Below are positions 6,844 through 53,498 of a stretch of DNA of 64,000 bases, piece after piece. Position numbers and translations under genes: made by a program. The notes below the pieces were generated by a model. It made no database searches. It was not told the origin of the DNA and worked only from the letters and a program-made list of their open reading frames with translations. Origin of the DNA: Fidelibacterota bacterium (GTDB taxonomy: Bacteria; Fidelibacterota; UBA8477); NCBI GenBank assembly GCA_021734065.1, contig JAIPJQ010000003.1:1497-65496 (forward strand), read 5' to 3'. How positions within the stretch are numbered: the stretch's first letter is position 1; the number at the start of each line of letters is the position of its first letter.

Positions 6844-6874
6844 CCTGACGGATCAAGGTAAGGACTGGAATCCC

Positions 6875-10231: not shown

Positions 10232-10744
10232 TCAATCACCTGGCCGAAGGATTCTCCCCGCGATATCTTCAATCACCCGGGGTTGTTCATAATATCCCTG
10301 CTGGATTTTTTCACGTATGGATTGGATTTCCTCATCGCTGAGCTGGTGCGGATTCTCACGCTGCTTTTGTAATTCTTCGAAACGCGCCGTCAGGATTTCC
10401 CTGATTCCCGGATCACCCATGATTCCCTCTGCGATCTTCTCGTGACTCTCGGGCGTATCGTATTTACCGGAGGTTATCGCTTTATTTATTCGCGCTATTT
10501 CAGCCGAATCTGACTCTTTCAGCACCTGAAGGTAGCGTCCCACCTCTTCCATTTGCTGTAACAGATTTCGGCCGGTATTGGAGATCTTCACACGGGCGGC
10601 GTTTCCGGATTCGGGAGGATCCGAATTTGTGGTCTCTTGCTTACCGACTTTCGATTGATTACCGGTACGATTGTTCGTGGCTTGGTTTTCTCGCAGGCGA
10701 CGAAATTCCGGTGGAAGGTTGTTTATGTCTTTAATTGGTCCCAT
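10232..10744 (-). CDS. flgM: anti-sigma-28 factor FlgM-like protein with duplicated C-terminal motif
   Basis: 170 aa. Polar, disordered-looking N-terminus. Two copies of the FlgM signature (EIARINKAITSGKYDTPESHEKIAEGI and EIQSIREKIQQGYYEQPRVIEDIAGRI). Last gene of the late flagellar block. Confidence 0.6.
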   Translation of the reverse strand: MGPIKDINNLPPEFRRLRENQATNNRTGNQSKVGKQETTNSDPPESGNAARVKISNTGRNLLQQMEEVGRYLQVLKESDSAEIARINKAITSGKYDTPESHEKIAEGIMGDPGIREILTARFEELQKQRENPHQLSDEEIQSIREKIQQGYYEQPRVIEDIAGRILRPGD

Positions 10745-10764: not shown

Positions 10765-11244
10765 CTACTTCTGCTGAATATCTATAAGATGCGCTCGTTC
10801 CTTATCCATTGTCAATGTCATTGTCGACGGATCCCTACTACGATGATCGGCAAGGTGTGTCAAATCTTTAGCGATCCGCATTTTCTCCGATCGCAGGCGA
10901 TCATACAATTTCTCATTGGCCAGATTGAGTTGTTCCGCAAGCGTGCTGATCTTTTTTTGTGTCGACCTGTGGGATTGGAACCCACTTGGCAGCGCCGCTC
11001 TCAGCTCCTCCAGGGCTTTAATCCCATCCATCTCCGTCTCACGGTCAGAGAGTAATTCCCCGATTTCAGTAATCGTCAGACTCTCCACCCTTTCGAGTTT
11101 TTCCTCGGTCATTTTCAGTAGCCGCTGAAATGATCGATGTTCTTCCAGTAAGATCGCCTCGGCGGATTCAAAGGCTTCATTCTCATTGGAAGGCTTTGAC
11201 GTTGGTCTATCCTTTTCGTGAGCCATTTTTTCTCGATTCAGCAT
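10765..11244 (-). CDS. hypothetical coiled-coil protein of the late flagellar operon (FliT/FlgN-like chaperone candidate)
   Basis: 159-aa helical, charged ORF between flaG and the flgM-like gene with 20-24 nt gaps. The functional call rests on position only. Confidence 0.4.
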   Translation of the reverse strand: MLNREKMAHEKDRPTSKPSNENEAFESAEAILLEEHRSFQRLLKMTEEKLERVESLTITEIGELLSDRETEMDGIKALEELRAALPSGFQSHRSTQKKISTLAEQLNLANEKLYDRLRSEKMRIAKDLTHLADHRSRDPSTMTLTMDKERAHLIDIQQK

Positions 11245-14834: not shown

Positions 14835-14861
14835 TTATCGGCTGGCTTCAAAAAAACTTTA
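14835..14861 (-). promoter_or_regulatory. sigma-28 (FliA) promoter of the flagellin gene
   Basis: The minus strand reads TAAA-N15-GCCGATAA, an exact match to the sigma-28 consensus, about 170 nt upstream of the flagellin ATG. Confidence 0.8.
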
Positions 14862-15163: not shown

Positions 15164-15190
15164 TAAAGATTTGCAAACTCCGGCCGATAA
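15164..15190 (+). promoter_or_regulatory. sigma-28 (FliA) promoter of the HTH/REC-HD-GYP/motAB operon
   Basis: The plus strand reads TAAA-N15-GCCGATAA (exact consensus), 33 nt upstream of ATG 15223 and divergent from the flagellin promoter. Confidence 0.75.
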
Positions 15191-15222
15191 TGGATAATGG
15201 GAATGAAAAATCGAGACACACC

Positions 15223-15456
15223 ATGAATGAAAATGAAGAAATACTGGATTTAGATACTGCCTGTGAACTCCTGAGAATTCGCCATCGCACCATGTATACC
15301 CTGCTGAAAGAGGGCAAGGTACCCGGGGTCAAGATTGGTGGCCAGTGGCGCTTCTCTAAAAAAGCCTTGCTGGATATGTTCAACACAAACAATCCCATAA
15401 GCCCTGTATCCGGTGAAGAACAACAAGAAGATACCGGAACGCCACCTCATGAATAA
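15223..15456 (+). CDS. small excisionase/MerR-type helix-turn-helix DNA-binding protein
   Basis: About 77 aa from ATG 15223. Motif LDLDTACELLRIRHRTMYTLLKEGKVPGVKIGGQWRFSKKAL is typical of the HTH_17/excisionase family. The longer ORF-track start (15073) lies upstream of the sigma-28 promoter. The stop overlaps the next gene's ATG. Confidence 0.65.
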   Translation: MNENEEILDLDTACELLRIRHRTMYTLLKEGKVPGVKIGGQWRFSKKALLDMFNTNNPISPVSGEEQQEDTGTPPHE

Positions 15457-16825
15457 TTCTTTACAGCAAAAGAACTCCGGAATCGTACGCTATAAAATAC
15501 TGGTGGTGGATGACGATCCGGCTACCCGTGAATTTCTGAAATTTGTTTTCAAAGAGGCTCAATACATTCTGAAAGAAGCAGTCAACGGCAAAGAAGGCAT
15601 CCAGGTGGCCCGTGAATTTCGTCCCGACCTTATTCTCAGCGATGTGGTCATGCCCGAAATGGATGGATTGGCGTTTTGTCAGGCTGTCCGGAACGACGAA
15701 AAGCTCCAGATGGTGATATTTTTACTCATGTCCTCTGTTCACCTGGAGATCAGTGACCGGGTTGATGGATTACGCGGCGGAGCCGATGAATACCTGTTGA
15801 AACCACTGGATGAAAATCAGATCAAAGCTCAGGTTCAAGCTTTTTTGCGTATAAAAATTCTTCAGGACCAATTGGTTTCCAAAAATGACCGACTGGAGGA
15901 AATGAACACGGCTCTGGAAGAGAATAAGCGTAAGGTTGAGGAGACAAACAAAGCCCTGGAGCACGAAAAAGAGCGGCTCACCTACTCCCTGAAGGAAATC
16001 TCGAAGCTGGCCGAGGAGCTGGAAAAATCACACAAAAACCAATTACAACTTAATATCACTTTAAAAGAGAGTTTTGATGATCTGGTGGCGCTTCTGGCGA
16101 CTATTGTAGAATTACGCAATCCCTACCAACCCGGTCACTCCAAGGAGGTGGCGCAGATTTCCATGTATGTTGGCGAACGCCTGGAACTTGACACCTCTCA
16201 GTTAAAAAACCTGCGGATGACGGCACTGTTACACGAGATTGGCATGATCGGTCTACCGGATGACATCATTAAACTAACACCGGATCAAATGTCGCCTGAA
16301 CAACTGAAAATATACCTTCAACATCCTGTTGTGGGTGAATCTCTGTTACTTAGCCTCAAAGGCTGCCAGCAGATGGCCAAAATTATCCGGCATCTGCACG
16401 AAAATCTGGATGGGTCCGGATTCCCCGATAAGTTGATCGGCGATGAAATTCCTCTGGAATCCAGGATTATTAAAGCCGCCGCTGATTTTAGTCGCGCACT
16501 TCAGAATGTCAGCGACCACGGCCAGATTTACCGGGTTTACCACGCGATGAAAAATGAAAGTGATATCCGCTACGATGCGCGGGTATTCGCCATTCTGAAA
16601 GATTATGTGGATACCATCGCCGACCGCAGGAAAAACCGAAAAATCGAGACCATCAGTCTGGCTCATTTACAGCCGGGAATGGTGCTGGCGGCAGACGTTT
16701 TCACCAATTCAGGTATTAAGTTAATACCGGAAGGTATTGTACTCACGGAAGCCTCCATCAAGGGTATTCTCAACTACAGTTACAACGATCCCCTGCCACC
16801 CGGGATCAAGATCATCGTGCAATAA
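15449..16825 (+). CDS. response regulator: REC + coiled coil + degenerate HD-GYP domain
   Basis: REC motifs VVDDD, LILSDVVMPEMDG, LLKP. HD-GYP-like core GHSKEV...LLHEIGM...HLHENLDGSGFP...AADFSRAL, with HD changed to HE and GYP to GFP. C-terminal LQPGMVLAADVFTNSGIKLIPEGIVLT module. Confidence 0.8.
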   Translation: MNNSLQQKNSGIVRYKILVVDDDPATREFLKFVFKEAQYILKEAVNGKEGIQVAREFRPDLILSDVVMPEMDGLAFCQAVRNDEKLQMVIFLLMSSVHLEISDRVDGLRGGADEYLLKPLDENQIKAQVQAFLRIKILQDQLVSKNDRLEEMNTALEENKRKVEETNKALEHEKERLTYSLKEISKLAEELEKSHKNQLQLNITLKESFDDLVALLATIVELRNPYQPGHSKEVAQISMYVGERLELDTSQLKNLRMTALLHEIGMIGLPDDIIKLTPDQMSPEQLKIYLQHPVVGESLLLSLKGCQQMAKIIRHLHENLDGSGFPDKLIGDEIPLESRIIKAAADFSRALQNVSDHGQIYRVYHAMKNESDIRYDARVFAILKDYVDTIADRRKNRKIETISLAHLQPGMVLAADVFTNSGIKLIPEGIVLTEASIKGILNYSYNDPLPPGIKIIVQ

Positions 16826-16894
16826 AATGAGATAAATAAGAGAGATAACATGCTGATTAAACAAACAAGATTGAAAAAATAGGCCGGAGTTCCA

Positions 16895-17707
16895 GTGGAC
16901 ATTGCCACCATATTAGGAATCATTTCAGGCGTGGGGCTTATCCTGATTTCAATCACCATGAACAGCGGCTTGGAGTTGTTTGTAAATATTCCCTCCATCA
17001 TGATCGTCGCCGGTGGCACCCTGGCGGCAACCCTCATTGCTTTTCCTCTCCATGAAGTCCTGATGGTCCTGTCGCTGCTCAGACGCATTTTCTTTCATAA
17101 ACGCTCCGATGCCCGGGCATTGATAACTCAACTGGTGGAGTTGGGTGTCCAGGCGCGGAAAGGTGGCGTGCTCTCGGTTGAGAATCAGCTCGCACAAATT
17201 AACAATGAATATCTGCGCAAGGGGCTCCAGCTGGTAGTGGACGGCGTCAGCGAATCCGGCATTATCAACATGCTTAAAATCGAAGAGGTCAATACGCGCA
17301 AACGACACCAGACCGGTTGGGAAATATTTGCTGAAATGGGTAAATACTCACCGGCATTCGGTCTGGTGGGCACCCTGATCGGGTTGATCCAGATGTTGGC
17401 GAATTTGGACGAACCGTCAACCATCGGACCCCGGATGGCCGTGGCGATGATCACCACCTTTTATGGCAGTATCATGGCCAATCTGATCTTCATTCCCATG
17501 TCCGTCAAACTCAAACGCCGTAGCCAGGAGGAAGCCATTCTCATGAGTCTGGTTATGGAGGGTATCAAATCAATCCGGTCGGGTGAAAATCCCAAACTCA
17601 TGGAGGACAAACTCAACAAATTCCTCTCGAATGAGCAGCAGAAAAAAATCGCAAAAAGTCTGAAAAAGGGCCGGGGGGCCAAGAAAAAGCCTGCGGACAA
17701 AACCTAA
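16895..17707 (+). CDS. motA: flagellar stator protein MotA (set 1)
   Basis: 270 aa with a GTG start preceded by GGAG. Four TM segments and the MotA/TolQ/ExbB signature (PAFGLVGTLIGLIQML, TTFYGSIMANLIFIP). Confidence 0.88.
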   Translation: MDIATILGIISGVGLILISITMNSGLELFVNIPSIMIVAGGTLAATLIAFPLHEVLMVLSLLRRIFFHKRSDARALITQLVELGVQARKGGVLSVENQLAQINNEYLRKGLQLVVDGVSESGIINMLKIEEVNTRKRHQTGWEIFAEMGKYSPAFGLVGTLIGLIQMLANLDEPSTIGPRMAVAMITTFYGSIMANLIFIPMSVKLKRRSQEEAILMSLVMEGIKSIRSGENPKLMEDKLNKFLSNEQQKKIAKSLKKGRGAKKKPADKT

Positions 17708-17725
17708 CCGGGAAGACCCAAACTG

Positions 17726-18586
17726 ATGCCAGATTCGGATCAAAATAACGACGATACTCTGTTTGAGGAAGTTATCGAGGACGAGGAGCAGGATGGATCA
17801 GCATCCTGGTTAATGACGTTCGGCGATATGATGACGCTGTTGCTGGCGTTTTTCGTCCTGCTGTTTGCCATGAGTGAGACCCAGATGGAAGATTTCGCTC
17901 AATTGATGGAATCGCTCAAAAAAGCAATTGGTAAGCAGGAGGTCCCTGAGGCCGGTACCCGTGTTGGCTTGAAAATGATGGAGATTAAGGCAGAAGAACA
18001 GCCGAAAGCGGTGGATGAATTGGGCGCTCTGGTTAAAAAGGAGATGGAGGACTTCGAGAGTCAGACCGAGGAGTTTATTCTTGCGAATACGCTGGCAGGC
18101 CAGGTGAAGGTTGAGGAGGACGGCCGGGGGGCTGTTATCACGATCTCGGATCTAATTCTTTTCCCATCAGGTGAGGCCGATTTTCTGACTGATGCCGAGG
18201 ACGTATTATTAAAAATCAAAGAATTGATCAATCAATTTAAATATCATGTAAAGGTTGAAGGACATACCGACAATGTCCCAATTAACACCCCCGAGTTTCC
18301 CAGCAATTGGGAACTATCAGCAAATCGGGCGAGTAAGATCGTGCGTTTTTTTATCGAACAAGGAGTTGATCCTGATCGGCTATCTGCTGAAGGTTTTGCT
18401 GAATATCGACCCATTGAAGATAACTCAACGATTGAGGGGCGCGCAAAAAACCGGCGGGTAGAGATTGTCTATCAGCGAGCGGATGTCACCCGGGCAATTC
18501 AGGATTCCCTGAACCAAGTTGATAACACCAACCCGATTGAAAAACTTCCAACCTCCACATCTCGGGACAGTACCCGCGCACCTTAA
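17726..18586 (+). CDS. motB: flagellar stator protein MotB (set 1), OmpA-like C-terminus
   Basis: 286 aa. SWLMTFGDMMTLLLAFFVLLF carries the conserved proton-channel Asp. C-terminal OmpA/peptidoglycan-binding motif (GHTDNVPI...NWELSANRA...NRRVEI). Confidence 0.88.
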   Translation: MPDSDQNNDDTLFEEVIEDEEQDGSASWLMTFGDMMTLLLAFFVLLFAMSETQMEDFAQLMESLKKAIGKQEVPEAGTRVGLKMMEIKAEEQPKAVDELGALVKKEMEDFESQTEEFILANTLAGQVKVEEDGRGAVITISDLILFPSGEADFLTDAEDVLLKIKELINQFKYHVKVEGHTDNVPINTPEFPSNWELSANRASKIVRFFIEQGVDPDRLSAEGFAEYRPIEDNSTIEGRAKNRRVEIVYQRADVTRAIQDSLNQVDNTNPIEKLPTSTSRDSTRAP

Positions 18587-18738: not shown

Positions 18739-19413
18739 CTATTCGGAATCGTCCAGGCTAATCATTTCCGGACCGCGGGTCGTATACTTCTCCGAGCGGA
18801 TCTGGATCATGTTTTCCAGTTTTTGAGTCACGGTTCTGATACGAGAGACATTATCCAGGATTTTCCGTAAACTACCTAAGACATTTTCCGGTAAATCTTT
18901 ATGTTTAAACAAGATCGTCTCGGCGTACATCTCGATAGCCTGAAGTGGATTATTAATTTCATGATTTGAAGTAATGGCCATCTGATTCACGAGTTTGATC
19001 GCCTGGAGCCTGTCATTTTCACGCTGCAATCTTAAAATGCGCAACCCGGTGCGCACCCGCGCTAAAAGCTCTTTGATATTGCACGGTTTGATGATGTAAT
19101 CGTCAGAACCCTTCTCGAATCCCAGGACAATATCTTCGATGTCATCCTTTGCTGTGAGCAGGATGAAGTAAGTCCGCTTCAATTCCGGATTTTGTTTGAT
19201 TGCCAGACACAGTTCTTCACCCGTCATTTCAGGCATCATCCAGTCTGAAATGACCAAATCCGGCTTGAATTCCTTCGCCCGCTCGTACGCTTCGCACCCA
19301 TCAGTGGTTACGGCAAATTCCACATTCTCATCCTTTAAAAACTTTTGCAGAAGCTTCGTGTACATGGCGTCATCCTCGGCGATGAGCACCTTCAAGGTTT
19401 CCGGGTGATTCAT
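18739..19413 (-). CDS. response-regulator receiver fused to a HisKA/DHp domain, no ATPase domain
   Basis: About 224 aa from ATG 19413. REC (LIAEDD, LVISDWMMPEMTG, LLTAKDD, IIKP), then the H-box ITSNHEINNPLQAIEMY, and the protein ends about 70 aa later. No N/G1/G2 ATP-binding boxes. Confidence 0.75.
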   Translation of the reverse strand: MNHPETLKVLIAEDDAMYTKLLQKFLKDENVEFAVTTDGCEAYERAKEFKPDLVISDWMMPEMTGEELCLAIKQNPELKRTYFILLTAKDDIEDIVLGFEKGSDDYIIKPCNIKELLARVRTGLRILRLQRENDRLQAIKLVNQMAITSNHEINNPLQAIEMYAETILFKHKDLPENVLGSLRKILDNVSRIRTVTQKLENMIQIRSEKYTTRGPEMISLDDSE

Positions 19414-19629
19414 TATATACACATCCGATCTTTTAGACTGAAACCAGCTTTCTTCAAACCGGACCAGGACGTCCAACTTATCCTGCCCGGCGACAGCTCG
19501 CTGTTAAATGTCCCGCTCACTTCCGGGATCTCTACACAGATGTCGTGTGAAAGCTTAATTTTTCCGGTTTTAATCAGGGTACTCCTCATCCCTTCTTCCT
19601 TCTATTCCAAGCCGCTGATGGTATCCTTA

Positions 19630-19656
19630 TTATCGGTCAAAAATCAAGCTCCTTTA
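19630..19656 (-). promoter_or_regulatory. sigma-28-type promoter upstream of the REC-DHp gene
   Basis: The minus strand reads TAAA-N15-ACCGATAA (one mismatch to consensus). It overlaps the stop codon of the GT2-TPR gene, about 215 nt upstream of ATG 19413. Confidence 0.6.
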
Positions 19657-21089
19657 GAGCTTTCTGCAGACGAGGGGGATTCACGGTTTAATTCCTGTAA
19701 AAGCCGATGTGCTTTTTCAACCTCTCCGACTTTGCTGTACAAACCCACTAACCGTTTGAGCGCCAGTCGGTTTCCCGGATCGGCAATGAACATTTGTTCA
19801 TATAATTGAATGGCACGTGGAAAATCCTGCTGTTTGACCTTTAGGATGGCCAACAAGTTCAGATATTTAATCTCGTCCGGAGCTTCGGTTAGCAACGCTT
19901 CCAGCTCGGTTTCTGCGGTTGAATAATCGTTGGTCTTCAAACTGATATCCACCAGGGATTCTCTCGCCGAAATATGATGTATCCCCAAATTCCTTGCCGC
20001 TTCCAGTGCTGCCCTTGCTCGTGCCGGTTCCTCCATTTTTAGTAGAAGCATTCCCTTTGTATATAAAATCTGTCCTGAGTCGATAGAAACATCAACGGAA
20101 ATGTTCTGGTTCAAGGATGATCGGGCTTCGCGCAGAGTCAGCAATTTATCCAACCATCCCAAAGCACCGGACAATTCGCCGGCTTGTTCGGCCAGGCGAT
20201 ACCTGAGGTAAATTGCCGAAGTCTGATGAGGAACCAGAGCGAGAGAAGCATCGGTCATTTTTCTGGCCCGGTCGGGCTCACCCAATCGCAGGTACGTTTC
20301 TGCGGTCACATTGAATAATGATGCCTTCATCCCCGGTGTAAAGTTTTCACGCGACAGTGCCACTTTCAGATGTTCCAGAGCTTCTGCGGGTTGATCCAGC
20401 AGATTGTATTGCTCACCAAGCTTATAGTGAGCATAAGCATTGCCCGGATCCTCCGTAACCAATTGTTGCAGCAATTCAAGGTTACGCCGGGCTTTGCGCG
20501 CTTTGCGATCCCCGGTAAAACCATAGCCTAAATGGAGTAGAATGATTTTTGATTCAAACTCCACACCTTTGAGTTTAATAGCGCTGGGAACCAACTGTTC
20601 GTGGATCCGGCCACTGAATTGGAGTCCAATATTATTTGAAAACAGACGGTGCGCCTTTGATAACGAAAAGGTGCACCCGTCTTCTTTAATATTGCGAATA
20701 TGAACATTATACAACGTGGGTTTTTTAACCGGTTTTAAAAGTTTTTTCAATTGGGGAATGGATTCCGGGAGTAATCGTTCATCAGCATCCAGCCATAAAA
20801 TCCAATCACTTTTGGCATATTGGATCGATGCATTGCGGGCTTTGGCAAAATCGTCTTCCCACGCGGATTCATGTACCACCGCACCGAACGATCTGGCCAA
20901 CTCAATCGTACCATCGGTTGAACCCGTATCCAGGATCAGCATTTCATCCACCACATCTCTGACGCTTGCCAGACATTCCGCCAGCATTTCTTCTTCATTC
21001 CGGACGATCATGCACAGTGATAATGTTTGCCGGACCGGGAGAATCGGCTTGCTGGTGAAGCTCTTTTTCCTGGTCATGGGCACCGGCAA
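19644..21089 (-). CDS. family-2 glycosyltransferase fused to TPR repeats
   Basis: 481 aa. N-terminal GT2 fold (LSLCMIVRNEEEMLAECL...ILDTGSTDGT...WLDADE), then about 280 aa of TPR-like repeats. Confidence 0.8.
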   Translation of the reverse strand: MPVPMTRKKSFTSKPILPVRQTLSLCMIVRNEEEMLAECLASVRDVVDEMLILDTGSTDGTIELARSFGAVVHESAWEDDFAKARNASIQYAKSDWILWLDADERLLPESIPQLKKLLKPVKKPTLYNVHIRNIKEDGCTFSLSKAHRLFSNNIGLQFSGRIHEQLVPSAIKLKGVEFESKIILLHLGYGFTGDRKARKARRNLELLQQLVTEDPGNAYAHYKLGEQYNLLDQPAEALEHLKVALSRENFTPGMKASLFNVTAETYLRLGEPDRARKMTDASLALVPHQTSAIYLRYRLAEQAGELSGALGWLDKLLTLREARSSLNQNISVDVSIDSGQILYTKGMLLLKMEEPARARAALEAARNLGIHHISARESLVDISLKTNDYSTAETELEALLTEAPDEIKYLNLLAILKVKQQDFPRAIQLYEQMFIADPGNRLALKRLVGLYSKVGEVEKAHRLLQELNRESPSSAESSKGA

Positions 21090-21158
21090 AAAGTCTGCAG
21101 TTCTGATAATGGGAAGCTTGATTTCATCATTTTAAAAGCCTTGGCTGAATACCTGAAA

Positions 21159-22142
21159 TCATCCGAGGGATTCGGTGATCTTTTTAAATTCATCAAGTCG
21201 TTTACCCCGACCCAATCGTATCTCCAACAGCTCTCGATTGACGTCATAATACTTATCCATCTGCTGATCCAGTTTGATGGTCAGAATACCGGTTCGCAGC
21301 AGGCGTTGAATTTCCGATTCAAAATCAGCCGGAGAATGCTTCAGGTCACGTTGAAGGCGATCGTTGAAATAGGTTAAAGCCAGATCATTGGCGGACCCCT
21401 GCTCAGACAACAGGCTTGCAATGAACTTGAGCAACTTTAATTCTTGACGTGATTGTTCTTCGAATTCAGGCGAGATACTTTTCCCGATACGACTGAAATA
21501 CTGCTCCCGGCAATATTGGGCGAGACTTTGGAAAGTTACGATATCGTTCACAATAAACTGACGACCTGCCTCATAATTAATTCCACTTTTCGCAATGCGG
21601 CTCAAGGTCAATTTATTCATCACCTTCTCCACAAAAGTCTGGGAGACATTGGTTAAAAAGGCAATGGTCTCGGCCGTTTCCTTCCAGGTAATCTGAAACT
21701 GGTTGAATTTGTCCGGGTCACGATGGGAAACCAGGTAGTAGAGCAGATAAACAACCTGTTTGCCTTGATCAGCCTTTGAGAGTGTGTTTTGGGTTGAATC
21801 CGCCTGACGTAAACGATCCACCAAAATTTCATAAAATGCCTGCATCCAGGAGGGGACCTCTTCCATCCGCTGTTCAAATAATATCTTGTTGATCTCGATA
21901 CATTGTGTTGTTGTCCTGGCGGTAATCGTTGCAGATCGTTGGCGCCCGTCCACCATGGACATCTCCCCAAAAATAGCGCCCGCTGTGAGTGTCGCTAATT
22001 TTACCGGTCGATTATCCACAACTTTCGTGACTTCCACCTCCCCACTCTGGAGGATGAACATGGATTTTCCATCATCACCTTCCCCACAAATTACATCGTC
22101 GGGCTGGTAGGTACGAAGGGCATTTTTTTCCACAAAAGACAT
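21159..22142 (-). CDS. cyclic-nucleotide-binding domain protein, Crp/Fnr-like with extra C-terminal region
   Basis: 327 aa. cNMP-binding motif GAIFGEMSMVDGRQRSATITA. A probable wHTH follows (ETIAFLTNVSQTFVEKVMNKLTLSRIA), then about 110 aa of unknown sequence. Confidence 0.7.
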   Translation of the reverse strand: MSFVEKNALRTYQPDDVICGEGDDGKSMFILQSGEVEVTKVVDNRPVKLATLTAGAIFGEMSMVDGRQRSATITARTTTQCIEINKILFEQRMEEVPSWMQAFYEILVDRLRQADSTQNTLSKADQGKQVVYLLYYLVSHRDPDKFNQFQITWKETAETIAFLTNVSQTFVEKVMNKLTLSRIAKSGINYEAGRQFIVNDIVTFQSLAQYCREQYFSRIGKSISPEFEEQSRQELKLLKFIASLLSEQGSANDLALTYFNDRLQRDLKHSPADFESEIQRLLRTGILTIKLDQQMDKYYDVNRELLEIRLGRGKRLDEFKKITESLG

Positions 22143-22147
22143 CTATT

Positions 22148-25100
22148 CTATGCTTTCTGTTGAGCCAAAACAGCCTGTTTCAATTCACGGGCTGATGGAT
22201 TTTCCGGATCCAGCGCAAGCACCTTCTCACTCCAGGATACCGCTTCATCCTTATTCCCCGCCTCTTCATGGAGCTGGGCCATCCGCAGTAAGCTGGGTAT
22301 ATCATCCGGGTTCCGATCCAGGATTGAGATATAGGTCTGAACACCACCAGTGTAATCTTCCTGTAGTAGCTGTATCTCTGCCAGATTACGCCGGGCATCG
22401 ATAAATGTCGGTTCCAGGTCGATGGCGTGGCTGATCAGAACATGAGCCTTTTCCAGATCCCCGGTTTCCGCTACAATAATACCACTTTGGTTATACGCCG
22501 CCGCATCGGCTGGATTGAACTTGAGAATTTTGTGCAGCAGACGTAGCGCTTCTTCAGAATGATCCAGGTTACGGGCGCAAATCGCCAGACCGAATAACGC
22601 CTCTTCGTCGAGTGGGTTTTCCCGGTAAATCTCCCTGAATAACGCATCCGCCTCGGGGAAATGTCCCTCGGCCAGTAACGCGGTCGCCCGCTTGATTTGA
22701 TAAGGATGCATCTCCTGCAAACCATTCCGAATTTCCAGCAATTCTTCGTAATCCACATCCGGCCATTTCGCGTGAAACAATTTCAGGCGTTCTTTGAGAT
22801 TTTGCTGGTAATCAATCCGGTTGGCTTTAAAGGTTTGGCTGCCAAAATGGTGCAACAGAACGGATTCATCAACCATGAGGGCCAAACCCTTTTCCCGAAT
22901 CCGTAAACTCAGATCATCATCTTCAAAATTACCCACACCAAACGAGGTGTCAAATCCACCGATCTCATCATAAAGTGATTTTTTCATCAATACCGCAAAA
23001 CCAGCCAGTCGGCGACGGGGTGTGAGCCGATTTTGATTTTGTTGATGGAGCGTTGAGGCGAATTGGAAAAATTCCTCGTCCGTGTCATAGGGTACTTCAG
23101 TCAACGCCTGACGACCACTGATATAGTTGGTGATCGGTCCCACAGCCCCGATATTTTCATCCCTTTCCAGCGATTCAACCAATGACCCAAGCCAACCTTC
23201 CGGAACGAGCACATCATTATTGAGCAGTATGATGTATTTTCCGCTGGCTATGGCAACACCTTGGTTATTGCCTTCAGCGAAGCCCATATTTTTCCTGTTT
23301 CTGATAAGCTTGTAATGCGGGTTCTTTTTAATCAGGGTATTCAGATATTTAACAGTGCCGTCAGTGGAGGCATTGTCCACAAAAACGATCTCAAACGGAA
23401 TGCTTGTATTTTTTTCAATCGATTTCATGCACTTTTTCGTGTATTCCAGAGCATTCCAGGTGAGCATGATGATTGAGACGAGGGGGTGGGCATCCGCATC
23501 CTTCATTTGGTCATGGTCATGATCAAACTTGGCTGTCATCAACTCCCGGATACGACCCGTACTCCAATTCCGCTCAACCAGGGCTCTCCCATTTTCAGAT
23601 AAGATTGTCCAGAGTGGTTGATCATGATACAGTTCAACCACAGATGCTACAAAATCTTCCGGTTTATCAGCCACCAGTGCTGTTTTACGGTGCTCCAAAC
23701 TCATACCTTCGGCACCGATCGAAGTAGTTACCACCGGGATCATCCAGGAGAGGGCTTCACCGATTTTACCCTTCATGCCGGCCCCATAGCGCAGTGGTGA
23801 AATAGAGATACGAGCCTTTTGAAGGTACGGTGTGAGATCTTCCACATAACCGGTCACGATTATCTGATCATTCGCCAGACTTTTGATCGATTCCGGAGGA
23901 TTGTTTCCCACGATGTACCACTTGATATCCGGAAGTTTTACCAGGATCGCCGGCCACATATTCTTATGAAAATGCAGAACAGCATCCACATTCGGGGTAT
24001 GGGAAAAATTCCCGACGAACAACAGATCGCTGGTTTGATCAAAGAGCCTTTCGACTGTCGGCATTTCATGGATATTGGGTATGATGTCGATGGGAATATT
24101 ACCGGTTTTGGGTGCAATGGATCGCCTGTCATTCTCGGTTACCACCCACACCTCATCCGCCTGATTATAAACGGCCAATTCCTGTTTTTGCTTTTGTTTG
24201 GCGATCTGTTTTAATTCTTGATCTTGTTTTAATTCCGCTTCCCGAATCTCACGAATAAAATGAATGTCAACCGTATCAACGATAATCTTAGTTCTGGATG
24301 TGATCTTGCGTAGACGTGGAATGAAATACTGGGCAATGTACCAGAAGGAAAGAATGGCGTAATCAAACTGGCGCGGTTTGAAAATCAGATCATAATTGAT
24401 GGGTGGAAATTCACGATTCAATTTGAATCCGGCCATTTTTAAGGCCTCGCCGTCATTCCCCCAGACCTCCACACCAATATTTTGTAGATCCCGAATGTAC
24501 CGGACATCGGGCGATAAAAGGCACGCCATATAGGTGACATGATAACCCATCTCACGCAAAATTTTGATATAACTAAACAATCGGAGGGAACCAGAAGCTC
24601 GATCATAGGCCGGCAGAAATTGATCAGCGATAAAGATATTACCCTTGATTCCACGCTGGGAAGCCCTTACTACATTCGATGGTCCCGGAGCAGATTGTTC
24701 TGACAATTCGGCTCGCCACTTGTCTAAAAATTTAGCAGCGTTGACTTTCTGGTAGCGTTTGAAACCAGTATTCAGATCGGTACCGGCCGTTTGCCCTTCA
24801 TAATGGACAACAACACTTGCCGGCTGGTAATAAACCTTAAATCCATTTTTTCGTACGGCAAAACAGAGGTCGGTATCTTCATAGTAAGCCGGAGAATAGC
24901 GTTTATCAAAACCACCGATAGTGTCCCACAACGATTTTCGAATCATTAGTGAAGCACCCGAGCAGTAATCCACCTCCCGGACAAAATTGAAAGCCGGGTG
25001 ACCCGGATTGTTACCACGGCCAAAATTCCAGCCACTCCCGTCCGAAAAAATGATCCCGCCGGCTTCCTGCAGCTTGCCATCGGGATACACGAGTTTTGAG

Positions 25101-28100
25101 CCAACTGCACCGCAATCAGGCCTTCTTTCAGCTAGTTGGACGAGCGATGTTAACCATCCGGGTTGAACCTCTGTATCGTTATTAAGGAAAAGTAAATATT
25201 CGCCCTCAGCTTCTGTTGCACCATGGTTACAGGCCTTAACAAACCCATGATTTTCATCATTAGAAACGACTTTATAATTCGAGATTTCGGACTGTTTTTG
25301 TAAAAAGTCGGGGGTATTGTCTGTGGACGCATTATCTATGATAATAACTTCATATTGGGAATATCTTGTATTCTCTTTAATCGCTTTAAGACACTTTTTT
25401 GTTAGCTCCAATTTATTGAAAACCGGAATAATGATAGACACTAAAGCTGTACGATCAACTTTTTTCTCAACGCTCCCCAAATCGCCGGAATGATCCAATT
25501 TACGATCGACAACTTTTTTTACGATCTTTTCCAAATCCACGTCAATCTCCAAGAATTTTTGGATACCTTTAAGAAGATCCGATCGGTTTTCTGAGAGAAG
25601 CGCTTTATAACTCACATTAAAGGATTCAAAAGGTTGGATATATTTGTTCATTCTTGCAATATACTCATCGTAGAGATTTTCGGCTTTGGCTCGCGTAAAT
25701 TTATTCCGCTTCATCAATGAACGAACAACGGCTTCTTTGTCCCTGTCCATTACGATTATTTTTAAGTTTTGCGGCAGAACTTTCCGCCATACAGGAAAAG
25801 TGAGACAGAGCCGAGGATCCTTCAGCGCTATCAAAGAATTATTTTGATAGCATCCGGTCACACGCTCCAACAACGGATCAACCTTGATAGATGAAATATT
25901 ATCTGGAGATGGCGGCTCATCCCAAGCACCGCCAGCGATTGATAATATCAGATCATTTGTTCCCACCACACTCTGTCGCTCAAAAAATCCATTAGGGTTG
26001 TCTGGTCGGGGACCCATAATATCATCCGATTCACCAATATAAAAACCGGCCTTATTGAGAACATTCATCATCATTGAGGTACCACTTCGATGCATTCCCA
26101 TAACCGTTACAAATTTCGTAATCGAATCAGACTGCATTTTTTTCTCATAGATATGGATTGTGCCGGCTTCATTTTCTCTGATCTGTTTTTGACTTTTAAT
26201 CTTAACGAAGTGATGTTGTCGAATAAATTGGTCTAAGTTTTCATCGACAAAATAATTCTCCGGGGTACGAATAACGAAATTTTTACGAGCCAGCACCAAT
26301 AAATTATTTAAAACTTTAGGTCGGGTTGAAACGGGCAGATGGTGATAAAGTCCTAAGAAAAGAACCGTATCATAAGCCGTTTTTAAATGACCTTGAGAGC
26401 TACTTAAAAAACGTTCCCAAGAAGAAAGATCGGCTTGATAAAGCTTAGCATTCGTTACATTATTTTTTCTCAGCAGTTCATTACCAAATTTCACTCGGAC
26501 GGCATCATACTCAAATCCATCAATCCATTTTGCCTGTCCTTCTGTTGCTAAAAATTTTGTAATCAACCCCTCTGCACACCCTGTATCAAGAATCGTGTGA
26601 TCCTTAACCTGCTCCTTTATTTGGTTTAAGCCTGAAATACGACGACTAAATGGTCTTTTGCCAAACAGTCCCAATTTGGGGTCTCTAAAATAGTGTGTCC
26701 ATTGTGGTCGCTCTAATAATTGGACGAGTATTTTACTGTACTTTCCCCAGGTATAGTTTTGCATATCACTAAATGCAGCTTGTCCAATCCTCACGCGTAA
26801 ATTATTATTATTCATCAATAATTTAATGCTTTTACCAATCTCATTTGGTGTGATGTTCTTTAAACAAAGGGAATTGGTATCGTTGGCAAAATCAATTGTA
26901 CCCGCCTGGGTCAAAATAACAGGTTTACCTACAGCCATGGCTTGTGCAGCGGTATTACACCAGCCAGCATGGGTTTCTGTTGTGACAACAATATCCATAG
27001 AACGATAGAAATTTGTCAGTTCGTCGTCGTAAAGTTTTCCCAAAAATTTAAGTCTGCCTTGATTTACAAAATGGTCTGCATCTCTATGTTGGATTCCATC
27101 TGATCCATATAGGCTCAATTTGACATTGTCTGGCAACTGATATAATGACTGAATTAATGGTATCGGGTTTTTCAATGCATATCCACCAATGTTCCATTCA
27201 CCCGCTTTTACTGACTTACCATCCACCAATACATTAGGTTTTGGGTTTGAGTGAATGGCACCGGGCAGGATATAAAAACTATCTGCCTGCAAATTGACAT
27301 AACTGTCCCAATGTGAATTATTGAAAATAACTACGTGTGGTTTAAAAACCTGATTAACTGCGTAGGCGCGTTTCTCAACACTTTTATCATTCAAGACATG
27401 CTGAATCCGGGTACCGAATCGATCATCAAGCAATAGTTCAATTTTTTTAACCTCCTTACCTTCTACACCCGCCCCAGGAATCATAACGGCATCCCACTTT
27501 GAAGTACCCAAATCAGATAAAGTCATAATGCGTTTTTCGAGATAGGGCCATTGTGTATTTGTCTTATTGGAGAGGGATAAAAATTCTACCTCATGCCCGA
27601 CTTTTTTCAAGGCTTTAGCAACCTCAATAAATCTGGCAATCCCACCATTAAGTGTAAATTCAAACCAGGCCACCAAAATTTTTAGAGTTTTTGTGTGTAT
27701 ATCTGAATTTAGTTCGGTAAATATTTTATCCAAATATTTGATATCCGAGGCTTTCAGTTCTGTACGATAATTACCAATTTTACCGTTTCTAACTTTAGGT
27801 GCTCCATTGCGGAGCCGTAACCAGGGATGTGGGAATTTACCACTTTGCTCAGTTTTTCGCATTTTTTCGATGGTTGAATTAGCAATTGCAGTGCGCAGTT
27901 CATCATCACTAACTGAAAAATTATAAAACTTGAGAAGTTTTCTTACTCCACCTTCAATATCGTGTTTACATTCTTCATAACTGAGGGTTAACACATTAAG
28001 TTCACTACTTAAGTGATGCCACATATCGCGAAAGCGTTTCAATGATTTGGCACCAAAATAATCATCTCGAATAAATTCTGAAATTGAACCTCTGTAGTTG

Positions 28101-28366
28101 AAAAAATCATCAAACCGACCTGTTATTTGGTGATACAGGCTTACAATTAAATCTCGGGGATCACGTTCCAGGTAGACAATTTTCTCCACATTTCGATAAT
28201 GTGTTAACCGCCTTGAAATGTCATAATTATGGGGAGGACAAGATCCATCATTGAACTCAAAACTATCATGTTGGAAAGTAATTTTGTTCTCCAGCCCCAA
28301 CTGAAAGAGGATGAATCTGATCCAAGACCTTCCTGATTTTGGGTATGAGATAAATTGTCTTTGCAT
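22148..28366 (-). CDS. 2072-aa multi-enzyme: sulfotransferase - GT-B - SAM methyltransferase - sulfotransferase - GT2 - GT-B - GT2 - TPR
   Basis: Uninterrupted ORF. Motifs: YPKSGRSW / ERDPRDLIVSLYH / RNGKIGNYR (aa 1-225); ETHAGWCNTAAQAMAVGKPVI (aa 229-553); ILDTGCAEG (aa 585-745); GMHRSGTS / KDPR (aa 750-960); VSIIIPVFN...IDNASTD...YEDTDLC (aa 975-1225); GAGMKGKIGEALSWMIPVV (aa 1240-1615); VSIIMLTWN...VDNASTDGT...FEDDDLS (aa 1627-1850); TPRs (aa 1885-2072). Confidence 0.8.
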   Translation of the reverse strand: MQRQFISYPKSGRSWIRFILFQLGLENKITFQHDSFEFNDGSCPPHNYDISRRLTHYRNVEKIVYLERDPRDLIVSLYHQITGRFDDFFNYRGSISEFIRDDYFGAKSLKRFRDMWHHLSSELNVLTLSYEECKHDIEGGVRKLLKFYNFSVSDDELRTAIANSTIEKMRKTEQSGKFPHPWLRLRNGAPKVRNGKIGNYRTELKASDIKYLDKIFTELNSDIHTKTLKILVAWFEFTLNGGIARFIEVAKALKKVGHEVEFLSLSNKTNTQWPYLEKRIMTLSDLGTSKWDAVMIPGAGVEGKEVKKIELLLDDRFGTRIQHVLNDKSVEKRAYAVNQVFKPHVVIFNNSHWDSYVNLQADSFYILPGAIHSNPKPNVLVDGKSVKAGEWNIGGYALKNPIPLIQSLYQLPDNVKLSLYGSDGIQHRDADHFVNQGRLKFLGKLYDDELTNFYRSMDIVVTTETHAGWCNTAAQAMAVGKPVILTQAGTIDFANDTNSLCLKNITPNEIGKSIKLLMNNNNLRVRIGQAAFSDMQNYTWGKYSKILVQLLERPQWTHYFRDPKLGLFGKRPFSRRISGLNQIKEQVKDHTILDTGCAEGLITKFLATEGQAKWIDGFEYDAVRVKFGNELLRKNNVTNAKLYQADLSSWERFLSSSQGHLKTAYDTVLFLGLYHHLPVSTRPKVLNNLLVLARKNFVIRTPENYFVDENLDQFIRQHHFVKIKSQKQIRENEAGTIHIYEKKMQSDSITKFVTVMGMHRSGTSMMMNVLNKAGFYIGESDDIMGPRPDNPNGFFERQSVVGTNDLILSIAGGAWDEPPSPDNISSIKVDPLLERVTGCYQNNSLIALKDPRLCLTFPVWRKVLPQNLKIIVMDRDKEAVVRSLMKRNKFTRAKAENLYDEYIARMNKYIQPFESFNVSYKALLSENRSDLLKGIQKFLEIDVDLEKIVKKVVDRKLDHSGDLGSVEKKVDRTALVSIIIPVFNKLELTKKCLKAIKENTRYSQYEVIIIDNASTDNTPDFLQKQSEISNYKVVSNDENHGFVKACNHGATEAEGEYLLFLNNDTEVQPGWLTSLVQLAERRPDCGAVGSKLVYPDGKLQEAGGIIFSDGSGWNFGRGNNPGHPAFNFVREVDYCSGASLMIRKSLWDTIGGFDKRYSPAYYEDTDLCFAVRKNGFKVYYQPASVVVHYEGQTAGTDLNTGFKRYQKVNAAKFLDKWRAELSEQSAPGPSNVVRASQRGIKGNIFIADQFLPAYDRASGSLRLFSYIKILREMGYHVTYMACLLSPDVRYIRDLQNIGVEVWGNDGEALKMAGFKLNREFPPINYDLIFKPRQFDYAILSFWYIAQYFIPRLRKITSRTKIIVDTVDIHFIREIREAELKQDQELKQIAKQKQKQELAVYNQADEVWVVTENDRRSIAPKTGNIPIDIIPNIHEMPTVERLFDQTSDLLFVGNFSHTPNVDAVLHFHKNMWPAILVKLPDIKWYIVGNNPPESIKSLANDQIIVTGYVEDLTPYLQKARISISPLRYGAGMKGKIGEALSWMIPVVTTSIGAEGMSLEHRKTALVADKPEDFVASVVELYHDQPLWTILSENGRALVERNWSTGRIRELMTAKFDHDHDQMKDADAHPLVSIIMLTWNALEYTKKCMKSIEKNTSIPFEIVFVDNASTDGTVKYLNTLIKKNPHYKLIRNRKNMGFAEGNNQGVAIASGKYIILLNNDVLVPEGWLGSLVESLERDENIGAVGPITNYISGRQALTEVPYDTDEEFFQFASTLHQQNQNRLTPRRRLAGFAVLMKKSLYDEIGGFDTSFGVGNFEDDDLSLRIREKGLALMVDESVLLHHFGSQTFKANRIDYQQNLKERLKLFHAKWPDVDYEELLEIRNGLQEMHPYQIKRATALLAEGHFPEADALFREIYRENPLDEEALFGLAICARNLDHSEEALRLLHKILKFNPADAAAYNQSGIIVAETGDLEKAHVLISHAIDLEPTFIDARRNLAEIQLLQEDYTGGVQTYISILDRNPDDIPSLLRMAQLHEEAGNKDEAVSWSEKVLALDPENPSARELKQAVLAQQKA

Positions 28367-28466: not shown

Positions 28467-28691
28467 CTATAAAAATTGTCCTAATATCTCAGTTGAGAAA
28501 CTTCCTGATGCAGCGGTAGCAGCCTGATTCTCTTCCCGGATTTTCTGATAAATTTCTTCTCGGTGAACCGCAATGTTTTCCGGTGCGACAACGCCAAGTT
28601 TTACTTGTCCGGAAGATGTTTTAATGACTGAGATTATCACATTCGTTCCAATACGAAAACTCTCACCCGCTTTACGTGTTAATACCAGCAT
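28467..28691 (-). CDS. csrA: carbon storage/translational regulator CsrA
   Basis: 74 aa. [15 protein letters not shown]...[19 protein letters not shown] is the canonical CsrA sequence. Lies 2 nt after fliW. Confidence 0.95.
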
Positions 28692-28693
28692 GA

Positions 28694-29260
28694 TTAACGC
28701 TCCCCATTTGAGGTTCGCGTTGCCTGCTTGATCGTCGTGAAAGAATTTTCCTGTCCCGGGGTTGAAGTTGGTGCACTGGCTGATGAAGTGTCCGGTACCA
28801 ACGGATAAGAAATCGGCAGCGATTCATCATCCAAAATCACCTGGTATCCAGTTTTCTGCTCTGTTGAAACAATAATCGGCGCCCGCAGGTTAGCGGTGAG
28901 TTTGCCCAAACTGTGATTGAGCCGCAGGATAAAGAACGTGCAGATTTTCTCCTCCTGCGACAAAGAGATTTGGGTCAGTTTTTCAGGTGGTACGGTTACT
29001 TCAATCTTTTGAGAAATTACTTTGGGATCCAAAAGTAGCATCGCCACATGACTCGCATCGTCTGCAACCAGAAAGGCAAAGTGTGGATAATCCAGCAGTT
29101 CAAACAGATGGTAATGGTGCAGTTCTTCAAAGCCCGGAATTCCCCCTGGAAATTCTATTGCAATTCCCTGTTCTGCATCAATCCTGAACTGAGGACCTTT
29201 TTCAGGCTTTGGGGTTTGAGGTGATGAGTTTGGTTGTTGCATCATGCTTTCGTTTTCCAT
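28694..29260 (-). CDS. fliW: flagellar assembly factor FliW (CsrA antagonist)
   Basis: 188 aa. [19 protein letters not shown] and [12 protein letters not shown] motifs. fliW-csrA pairing. Confidence 0.9.
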
Positions 29261-37045: not shown

Positions 37046-37873
37046 TTATTCCGCGAGTCGCGTCATTTGGATATCGTCGCAATAATCATCACTTAACGAG
37101 GTTTCAATTTTTTTCAACTGATAGGTGATTGATCGAATTCTGTATGCCTGTGCCAGGATGATTTCCAGATGGTCCTTAACTGCTGATTTTCCGTTGATCT
37201 GTTTGTCCAGTTTGAGCTGTAATAATTCGGCATTGCCAATGATGGAAGTGAGGGGGTTGTTAATTTCGTGGTTCACGGTGACGGTAATCTCGCCGATGGC
37301 GGCCATTCGTTCCGATTCCACCAATTCGGCCTGGGTCTGCTGTAGCTTCTCCAAACTGTCCTGGAGCTCCTGATTACGTGCCTGAAGTTTTTTTCGCAGG
37401 AACAGTTGTTCAGCGGCGATGGAAAACTGGTTGGCGATCAGGACGAATTTTTCCAGATCCTCTTCCCGATAAACACCTTCCCGGGAATGACCCAGGTTCA
37501 TCACTCCCAACAACCTTTCACCCGCCCAGAGCGGGAGTGAAACAAAGGAATTAAAGAGATTCGCCTGGCCTGGCCTGGATTTCCTGAGTGAGGAAAGAAT
37601 GACCGGTTCCCTTTGATTTGCAATCCATCCCGACAATCCAGGACCGTTGTCAAATGAAACATCACGTATCAGGTCAACAACCGAATCGCCAATTTGGTAT
37701 TTGTGCTCCAGTTTTCCGCTGGCAGGGTCTTTCAGGAAGAGTGTCGCACAATCAAAAGAGACAGCGGACAGCAGGAGATCAAACAGCGCCCCAAAGAGTT
37801 GTTGATCCGATTCCCAGCTTTTTTGCAGGAGGGTCGCCAGGGTGACCAGAGGATTTTTATCGACATATACCAT
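37046..37873 (-). CDS. GAF domain fused to HisKA/DHp domain, no ATPase domain
   Basis: 275 aa. GAF region (aa 20-150), coiled coil, then H-box ITVTVNHEINNPLTSIIGNAELL. The protein ends 73 aa after the His. No N/G boxes. Confidence 0.75.
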   Translation of the reverse strand: MVYVDKNPLVTLATLLQKSWESDQQLFGALFDLLLSAVSFDCATLFLKDPASGKLEHKYQIGDSVVDLIRDVSFDNGPGLSGWIANQREPVILSSLRKSRPGQANLFNSFVSLPLWAGERLLGVMNLGHSREGVYREEDLEKFVLIANQFSIAAEQLFLRKKLQARNQELQDSLEKLQQTQAELVESERMAAIGEITVTVNHEINNPLTSIIGNAELLQLKLDKQINGKSAVKDHLEIILAQAYRIRSITYQLKKIETSLSDDYCDDIQMTRLAE

Positions 37874-53461: not shown

Positions 53462-53498
53462 GGACTGACCGGTTTCGACATGATGGAAGTTTTCAAGA

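Follow-up and report, generated by a model that had tools for sequence, protein, structure and literature searches.

A receiver joined to a DHp domain that has no ATPase partner

The stretch of DNA analysed here, the window, comprises 64,000 nucleotides (nt) of a Fidelibacterota genome (assembly GCA_021734065.1, contig JAIPJQ010000003.1, positions 1,497 to 65,496), and all coordinates below count from its first letter. It holds a large flagellar gene cluster, and within this cluster lies a short gene whose product joins a response regulator receiver (REC) to the dimerization and histidine phosphotransfer (DHp) domain of histidine kinases, but carries no ATPase domain. The gene, here called REC-DHp, and its parts are as follows.

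18739-19413, minus strand: REC-DHp gene, 224 amino acids (aa) plus stop, ATG start
19051-19389, minus strand: receiver domain, residues 9-121, with the catalytic set D14, D15, D57, T87 and K109
18964-19050, minus strand: signalling-helix linker, residues 122-150, in which receiver alpha5 runs directly into DHp helix 1
18814-18963, minus strand: DHp (HisKA) hairpin, His151 to about residue 200, with the H-box H151-E152-I-N154-N155-P156-L157 (HEINNPL)
18742-18801, minus strand: conserved C-terminal tail, residues 205-224, ending in …SEKYTTRGPEMISLDD and occupying the place of the catalytic domain

The translation starts MNHPETLKVLIAEDD, and the ATG at 19413 is favoured over an upstream TTG at 19476 by the aligned N-termini of 31 homologues. 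A preliminary description of the sequence had named three receiver motifs, and all are present: ISDWMMPEMTG with D57 (codon 19245-19243), LLTAKDD with T87 and IIKP with K109. The H-box reads SNHEINNPLQAIEMY, with H151 encoded at 18963-18961. Pfam assigns residues 9-121 to Response_reg (E 1e-26) and residues 150-204 to HisKA (E 6.4e-6, 26.6 bits where the gathering score is 26.9). HATPase_c was not found by Pfam in REC-DHp, nothing beyond Response_reg and HisKA matched below an E of about 1e-3, and there was no match to HPt (PF01627) at E up to 1.

The protein has everything that defines a receiver (PF00072), namely the fold, the pair of aspartates in the pocket and the phosphoacceptor Asp, the Thr and the Lys, and everything that defines a HisKA-type DHp, a hairpin with the H-box on helix 1. 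It lacks what defines an autokinase, as there is no HATPase_c and 24 residues remain beyond helix 2. The tail that fills these residues has the motif Y-x(3-6)-(GP)-x-M-I-D-L. From the stop of REC-DHp to the stop of the convergent motB gene there are 152 nt, so that a catalytic domain hidden 3' of the gene is impossible in any frame. The motifs and the architecture without an ATPase domain that had been proposed are borne out by the translation of the open reading frame (ORF), by Pfam and by the conservation of the homologues. Two points on which that proposal could have failed also came out in its favour: the C-terminal helices are a HisKA-type DHp, both by Pfam and by the alignment of His151 with His161 of LvrB, and no catalytic, ATP-binding (CA) domain follows in frame, the 152 nt after the stop leaving no room for one.

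The family and its conservation

A search of 5.8 billion clusters places REC-DHp in a family of proteins of about 220-235 residues, nearly all of which have precomputed matches to both Response_reg and HisKA; the HisKA match is recorded for the protein's own cluster as well as for most homologues. Relatives at 50-57% identity belong to Fidelibacterota/Neomarinimicrobiota, those at about 40% to Ignavibacteria-like Bacteroidota and Kryptoniota, and those of lower identity to Eisenbacteria, Nitrospirae and a few other phyla. One relative, L013, is titled as a Synechococcus sp. metagenome-assembled genome (MAG). It is 41% identical to the query and has the NFACT-like plus REC-DHp layout of the Ignavibacteria/Bacteroidota MAGs, which makes mis-binning of the contig probable.

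An alignment of 32 members shows D14, D57, the WMMP motif, K109, P110, H151, N154, N155 and L157 to be invariant and D15 and T87 nearly so. Y210 and the M-I-D219-L220 of the C-terminal tail are also nearly invariant. Mean column identity is 50%, with the catalytic residues intact, and the stretch from K109 to H151 is free of gaps in 32 homologues.

Predicted structure and the receiver-to-histidine distance

An AlphaFold2 model made with the family alignment has a mean pLDDT of 89. It predicts a (beta-alpha)5 receiver with pLDDT >90, one unbroken helix that spans residues 113-170, another at 176-200, and a short beta-hairpin in the tail (strands 207-209 and 216-218, pLDDT about 77). Receivers in the PDB match the model with TM-scores of about 0.9, normalized to the target receiver domain. 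The Foldseek search of the PDB with this model was dominated by the receiver and returned nothing on the DHp; a sequence search with the DHp alone was informative instead. The best solved DHp relative is LvrB of Leptospira (PDB 8vc9), whose phosphoacceptor His161 aligns with His151, and the DHp also aligns with the DHp domains of ThkA and HK853.

Between K109 and H151 there are 42 residues, or six heptads. The same Lys-Pro-to-His spacing of 42 is found in 92 of about 113 REC-DHp relatives, and the others mostly have 49, 56, 63, 70 or 77. In Rec-controlled kinases, the linkers between receiver and DHp likewise favour multiples of seven residues, and in LvrB phosphorylation of the receiver acts through a signalling-helix coiled coil to send a mechanical signal over >50 Å (PMC13269768). 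Helix geometry (about 38 residues at 1.5 Å each) gives an estimate of about 55 Å between His151 and the receiver active site of REC-DHp. The continuous helix, the fixed spacing, this distance and the presence of PAS, GAF or HAMP domains in the same position in sister proteins, described below, together make the receiver most likely a regulatory input to the DHp and not a phosphodonor in cis.

A kinase-less DHp module and a second protein that carries it

The DHp and tail can be followed without the receiver. Residues 125-224 alone, searched against 1.84 billion representative proteins, gave 234 matches, and of the best 150 of these, 129 have no more than 25 residues between the DHp and the C-terminus. 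Pfam was run on 106 proteins that end after the DHp, two of them from the window: HisKA was present in 106 of 106, and no protein had HATPase_c. As inputs they carry REC (32 proteins), PAS (about 32), GAF (about 15) and HAMP (8), the same repertoire as that of real kinases. H151, E152, N154, N155 and P156 are each conserved in at least 90% of the 106, a figure that is partly circular for His and Glu as the query used for retrieval contained the H-box. Most of the C-termini printed for these kinase-less relatives share the tail, for example …EYIADGPQMIDV… or …KPYLKNSDLQMLDL….

A few relatives are longer. P0122 and P0156 are REC-DHp-REC proteins, and P0135, P0153, P0184 and P0243 have some other input before a DHp-REC arrangement, all without an ATPase domain. 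These six C-terminal fusions indicate, from architecture, that the module deals with receiver domains. In P0216 (485 aa), a PAS domain and a tail-type DHp stand directly before a complete DHp-CA kinase core. The DHp-tail query also matches P0121 (1276 aa) in 11 separate stretches and P0147 (3583 aa) in 7, which suggests tandem arrays of the helical unit in both proteins; Pfam found no HisKA match in P0121.

The second member in the window is a GAF protein that had been noticed, together with REC-DHp, in the preliminary description.

37046-37873, minus strand: GAF-DHp protein, 275 aa, with GAF and HisKA and no HATPase_c by Pfam; kinase-less DHp-plus-tail module

It lies 32 nt beyond a PAS-HisKA-HATPase kinase (37906-39150, minus strand), and the pair is flanked by the FliA region and FlgF. 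The DHp of the GAF protein shares 35% identity with that of REC-DHp (E 5e-8). A profile of the module, built without either window protein, scores REC-DHp at 99 bits and GAF-DHp at 88 bits, both over its full length. The two true kinases of the window score 30-32 bits, and their match ends before the tail. The idea that two DHp-only proteins in one flagellar locus make up a system is thus half sustained: they share one defined module, as these scores show, but their joint action finds no support. At helix-1 positions His+4, +7, +8, +11, +12 and +15, REC-DHp, GAF-DHp and the PAS kinase all differ in a comparison made by eye, which gives no evidence of a target shared by the three. No GAF-DHp orthologue was found by tblastn beside REC-DHp in any of the fetched loci.

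A sigma-28 promoter motif and the leader

The following features lie upstream of the REC-DHp start.

19630-19656, minus strand: putative promoter of the sigma-28 (FliA) type, TAAA-N15-ACCGATAA, which overlaps the stop of the GT2-TPR gene before it
19414-19629, minus strand: putative 5' leader, 216 nt between the -10 element and the ATG, GGA-rich and not conserved
19413-19589, minus strand: 58-codon upstream ORF, the stop of which overlaps the REC-DHp start (TAATG)

The promoter motif matches the consensus TAAA-N15-GCCGATAA at 11 of 12 positions. A scan of both strands of the 64-kb window for TAAA-N(14-16)-CCGATA gave three matches where 0.27 are expected, and none of 100 shuffles reached three. 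The sites lie 5' of flagellin (14836-14861, minus strand), 5' of the HTH_17/REC-HD-GYP/MotA/MotB operon (15164-15189, plus strand) and 5' of REC-DHp, each of them upstream of a motility gene or operon. The window encodes the matching sigma factor, FliA (40709-41551, minus strand; Pfam Sigma70 regions r2, r3 and r4; gene order FlhA-FlhF-FlhG-FliA), and its anti-sigma factor FlgM (10232-10744, minus strand).

In L007, whose REC-DHp is 89% identical, the motif is kept as TAAA-N15-ACCGATAAT. In L006 and L090 (79% identical) it appears as TCAA-N15-(A/G)(C/A)CGATAAT in the same place, just past the stop of the upstream gene. The DNA around the motif cannot be aligned between the window and these three loci. 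L006 also has the motif before its flagellin gene and its HTH_17 operon, and L001 has it before the HTH_17 operon. Promoter conservation rests on four loci, the metagenome scan having added a single close relative, L090. The proposed sigma-28 promoter therefore stands in part, being present, rare and conserved in L007, L006 and L090 but missing from the relatives at 50-57% identity. Because it is the three closest relatives that share the motif, and not those more distant ones, sigma-28 control of REC-DHp is credible, on motif evidence, as a trait specific to the closest lineage. A terminator-like hairpin over the -35 element (19662-19646) was considered and rejected, being weak (3 GC pairs), within the shuffle expectation and absent from L007.

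The claims made for the leader fared less well. It is long and GGA-rich as described, with 11 GGA where 4.3 would be expected (Poisson P about 0.005; a count this high is found in 0.8% of stretches of that size), but neither its length, its sequence nor its GGA content is conserved in relatives at 79-89% protein identity: the leaders of L007, L006 and L090 are about 105-125 nt, unalignable, and contain 1-3 GGA. Rfam gave no match between 18500 and 19900 at E up to 1, so the leader is not a known RNA element. The window does encode CsrA (28467-28691, 74 aa, MLVLTRK…) and FliW (the pair at 28467-29260, minus strand), downstream of FlgL, and CsrA-FliW is the partner-switch pair of Bacillus flagellin control. 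The case for CsrA acting on the leader is nevertheless weak, because the features on which it would depend are not kept in relatives. That no obvious Shine-Dalgarno (SD) sequence precedes REC-DHp is correct and unremarkable, as about half of the clearly real genes of the window also lack an SD-like motif.

The 58-codon upstream ORF is probably not a gene, to judge from its distribution. L007 has no equivalent and L006 has only unrelated 29-codon ORFs. A 58-aa ORF in L001 also overlaps the REC-DHp start and shows no sequence similarity to that of the window. A role as a translational-coupling device was ruled out, the ORF not being conserved in L007 or L006.

Genomic context

The flagellar cluster of the window runs from FliG to FlgE, MotA1/B1, FliL to FlhA, FlhF, FlhG and FliA, and continues with the PAS kinase, GAF-DHp, FlgF to FlgL, FliW, CsrA, a glycosylation block, a cNMP-binding protein and REC-DHp. 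Past REC-DHp comes a convergent operon, then flagellin, FliD and FlgM. The convergent operon is composed as follows.

15164-18586, plus strand: convergent operon as a whole
15164-15189, plus strand: sigma-28 motif
15226-15456, plus strand: HTH_17
15413-16825, plus strand: REC-HD-GYP
16895-17707, plus strand: MotA2
17726-18586, plus strand: MotB2

The window thus has two stator sets, MotA1/B1 (52748-54263, minus strand) in the main flagellar operon and MotA2/B2 in this separate operon with its sigma-28 motif. REC-DHp is convergent to HTH_17/REC-HD-GYP/MotA/MotB in five loci of the Fidelibacterota type: the window, L001, L002, L006 and L008. REC-HD-GYP is a regulator of the cyclic di-GMP (c-di-GMP) phosphodiesterase type. 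The order REC-HD-GYP then MotAB also occurs in the Desulfobacterales loci L070 and L049, and L063 has all three genes as well, though there MotAB is encoded on the other strand some 3 kb from the regulator.

Elsewhere the neighbours change. In the Ignavibacteria-like loci L003, L004, L011, L012, L015 and L018 (around position 10000 of each), a conserved pairing is seen: REC-DHp follows, within a few nt, an NFACT/RqcH-like gene of the FbpA type that encodes about 560-575 aa. Among Kryptoniota, it overlaps the end of a PAS-GAF kinase gene in L005; the L009 gene is preceded by an ORF of 133 aa whose N-terminus resembles a receiver, and this in turn by a putative kinase of 1234 aa. As the context differs between the Fidelibacterota, Ignavibacteria-like and Kryptoniota loci, the family behaves as one of response regulators with varied partners, and the flagellar association is a trait of this lineage.

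Several side observations concern the surroundings. The region 19644-28366 (minus strand) encodes a 2072-aa protein with sulfotransferase, methyltransferase and several glycosyltransferase domains and TPR, then the cNMP-binding and GT2-TPR proteins. It is probably a flagellin glycosylation block, and the same gene order precedes REC-DHp in L006, L007 and L090. Genes with HDOD domains (Pfam) adjoin kinase-less DHp genes in L001 (2788-4801), L002 (7858-9699) and L088 (4978-5856), the DHp gene being REC-DHp in the Fidelibacterota loci and PAS-DHp in L088, which like the window has a cNMP-binding protein as neighbour. L008 has two similarly placed, unannotated ORFs of 306 aa (6207-8037). The 307-aa ORF at 39511-40434 (minus strand), between FliA and the PAS kinase, was tried as an HDOD protein like those of L001, L002 and L008, and no similarity was found. 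It has no Pfam match at E up to 1e-3, and the same holds for the 159-aa ORF at 10765-11244 (minus strand) beside FlgM.

A possible mechanism and its alternatives

With no ATPase domain, REC-DHp cannot phosphorylate itself. The reading that we tentatively prefer, with confidence slightly short of even, is that it is a dimeric response regulator in which the phosphorylated receiver allosterically sets a kinase-less DHp that acts on the receiver of a second regulator, either as a relay or drain or as a phosphatase. A histidine kinase would phosphorylate Asp57, and this would rearrange the receiver dimer as in Rec-controlled kinases of the LvrB type. The change would pass along the rigid six-heptad signalling helix to the DHp, which would then act through His151, Glu152 and Asn155 on the receiver of another response regulator. 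His151 might take up phosphoryl groups and pass them on, as a His relay or a drain by reverse transfer. Alternatively, the DHp might be a HisKA-type phosphatase whose rate is set by its own receiver. If the FliA promoter is used, synthesis of the protein would await completion of the hook-basal body, and a motility phosphorelay would be re-tuned by it at that stage. The most plausible target would be the neighbouring REC-HD-GYP c-di-GMP phosphodiesterase encoded with MotA2/MotB2. What the analysis shows directly is the domain content, the conserved residues, the module family, the spacing, the promoter motif with its conservation, and the synteny; that the protein dimerizes, that its control is allosteric, which way phosphoryl groups flow and which partner it serves are inferred.

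The chemistry of the H-box agrees with both options. An acidic residue at His+1 is needed for phosphorylation of the histidine, and Thr or Asn at His+4 for phosphatase activity, according to Willett and Kirby (2012, PMC3510030) as summarized in a later report (10.64898/2026.02.27.708494). E152 (His+1) and N155 (His+4) are both conserved in the REC-DHp family and in the 106 kinase-less relatives. Since the acidic His+1 and the Asn at His+4 are both kept, the H-box is compatible with relay and with phosphatase. The Kryptoniota loci, in which REC-DHp overlaps a kinase gene or stands in a row with a kinase and a receiver-like ORF, also speak for the preferred reading.

A number of points weigh against this reading. 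The HisKA score of REC-DHp is 0.3 bits under the Pfam gathering score, and the conservation of His and Glu is partly circular, as noted. The helix-1 positions that usually determine the specificity of a DHp for its partner (158-166) vary among Fidelibacterota orthologues. The link to REC-HD-GYP is one of convergent synteny alone, within one phylum, and the 40%-identical Ignavibacteria-like relatives adjoin the NFACT/RqcH-like gene instead. As to the promoter, no CGATA was found within 350 nt upstream of the gene in L001, L002 or L008 (50-57% identity), and in the window REC-DHp follows a long glycosyltransferase operon on the same strand, from which read-through transcription is possible. Finally, no member of the group has been studied experimentally (Galperin et al. 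2018, PMC5847659).

Four alternatives have to be set beside the allosterically controlled DHp. In the first, which seems to us unlikely, REC-DHp would be part of a split or heteromeric kinase. A true kinase, such as the PAS kinase (37906-39150), would use its ATPase domain to phosphorylate His151 in trans, whether within a mixed DHp dimer or in a transient complex, and REC-DHp would give that kinase a second, receiver-controlled input. The Glu at His+1, needed for ATP-dependent phosphorylation of His, is kept in the kinase-less clade, and three arrangements bring such a DHp close to a kinase: GAF-DHp is encoded directly downstream of the PAS-HisKA-HATPase kinase, REC-DHp of L005 overlaps the end of a kinase gene, and P0216 pairs a DHp of the kinase-less type in tandem with a full DHp-CA. 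However, the DHp domains of the true kinases of the window are distant (30-32 against 88-99 bits) and their H-boxes read HEISQPL and VHDFRNYL, and REC-DHp has a predicted promoter to itself, with no kinase gene adjoining it in the Fidelibacterota loci. Selection also normally acts against mixed dimers of paralogous kinases.

In the second, to which we likewise attach a low probability, the output would be non-catalytic. The DHp would be a phospho-regulated dimerization or coiled-coil surface that titrates a kinase or a component of the motor or stator, with no chemistry at His151. Kinase titration has a precedent in RetS, which blocks GacS. The conserved C-terminal tail has no known catalytic role, the gene adjoins stator genes, and roles in protein-protein interaction have been suggested for REC-(PAS/GAF)-HisKA proteins (Galperin et al. 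2018, PMC5847659). It is difficult to see from this, however, why the H-E-x-N-N-P-L box should be invariant across phyla when the rest of the helices varies, or why the module should be fused repeatedly to C-terminal receivers.

The third, suggested in the preliminary description, is an intramolecular relay like a fusion of Spo0F and Spo0B, in which phosphate would pass from Asp57 to His151 of the same polypeptide or dimer and on to a terminal regulator. DHp-type bundles such as Spo0B and ChpT do work as phosphotransferases, a competent Asp and a competent His stand here on one chain, and REC-DHp-REC relatives exist (P0122, P0156). We nevertheless consider it quite improbable. K109 and His151 are joined by one predicted helix of fixed length that would hold His151 about 55 Å from the Asp pocket, with an invariant spacing of 42 residues. 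The same layout in LvrB carries an allosteric signal over >50 Å and not phosphate, and in sister proteins the position of the receiver is filled by PAS, GAF and HAMP, which marks it as one of regulatory input. Transfer of phosphate from one dimer to another may still occur.

The fourth, that REC-DHp is a decayed or mis-assembled kinase gene left functionless by the loss of its catalytic domain, is effectively refuted: although the …M-I-D-L of the tail resembles the …V-D-L segment that opens the catalytic domain of related true kinases, the length, stop position and tail are kept in dozens of clusters from several phyla, the columns average 50% identity with the catalytic residues intact, there is no space for a downstream domain, and such family-wide conservation means that REC-DHp is not a truncated or mis-sequenced kinase. 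The kinase-less module itself probably arose by truncation.

The preferred reading, of a DHp under receiver control, can be extended to the module as a whole. DHp-plus-tail proteins might form a large unrecognized class of phosphotransferases or phosphatases controlled by sensors, with REC, PAS, GAF or HAMP inputs, and the two in the window might be a late layer that drains or reroutes phosphate. This extension is speculative and we think it unlikely to hold in full. Were it true, REC-DHp would act on the REC-HD-GYP/second-stator operon and GAF-DHp beside the PAS kinase, and completion of the flagellum would be coupled to c-di-GMP turnover and the choice of stator.

Comparison with known systems

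Two-component signalling is usually drawn as a kinase acting on a regulator. A widespread group of proteins departs from this picture by keeping the histidine helix and dropping the ATPase, and has been listed in censuses for years as 'incomplete kinases'. REC-DHp is a tractable member, being a soluble protein of 224 aa whose receiver input is clear, whose linker is fixed in length and whose catalytic box does not vary. The predicted late flagellar promoter and the REC-HD-GYP/stator operon next door also allow its regulatory setting to be guessed. To decide between relay, phosphatase and inert partner in this case would tell what is done by hundreds of proteins annotated as 'histidine kinases' although they cannot be kinases.

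Among known systems, Spo0B of Bacillus and ChpT of Caulobacter are dimeric helical-hairpin bundles that shuttle phosphate between receivers without ATP. REC-DHp is like them in having a DHp-like hairpin with a predicted phospho-accepting His and in not using ATP. Unlike REC-DHp, which consists beyond this hairpin of a receiver and a 20-residue tail, they retain at the C-terminus a degenerate alpha/beta (pseudo-CA) domain and lack any sensor input, and REC-DHp is not a protein of the Spo0B/ChpT type. The isolated DHp of EnvZ ('domain A') still dephosphorylates its cognate regulator without the catalytic domain, and REC-DHp carries H151-E-I-N-N155 where HisKA proteins have the E/DxxT/N phosphatase motif. 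However, domain A is an engineered fragment of a bifunctional kinase, whereas the kinase-less state of REC-DHp is natural, conserved and under the control of a receiver.

LvrB is close in sequence and layout, with the same HEINNPL H-box and an N-terminal receiver continuous with a heptad signalling helix. It differs in having a CA domain that is clamped on the helix when inactive and released on phosphorylation, where REC-DHp has its 20-residue tail. Of the hallmarks of Rec-controlled kinases, REC-DHp therefore has the linker of a multiple of seven residues and lacks the clamped catalytic domain.

The nearest published category is that of the 'nonenzymatic HK-like proteins' of Galperin et al. 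(2018), defined by a sensor and a HisKA domain whose His is conserved, in the absence of HATPase, for which the label in P2CS is 'possible incomplete histidine kinase' (PMC5847659). The same census describes REC-(PAS)n-HisKA regulators and suggests for them a phosphoacceptor, phosphotransfer or phosphatase role (PMC5847659). Literature searches on REC-HisKA, HisKA-only and CA-less proteins found nothing on the class beyond this census. REC-DHp has all that the definition names, an input domain and HisKA, the conserved His and no HATPase. The published class, by contrast, is a catalogue entry for archaea, mostly of REC-(PAS)n-HisKA form, whereas in REC-DHp a helix of six heptads, fixed in length, leads straight from receiver to DHp, the tail motif is present and the gene lies in a bacterial flagellar regulon. 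The architecture is therefore already catalogued, and REC-DHp is an ordinary member of a known group rather than a new kind of system; what is added here is the tail motif, the fixed six-heptad spacing, the recurrent fusions to C-terminal receivers and the putative sigma-28 promoter of one lineage.

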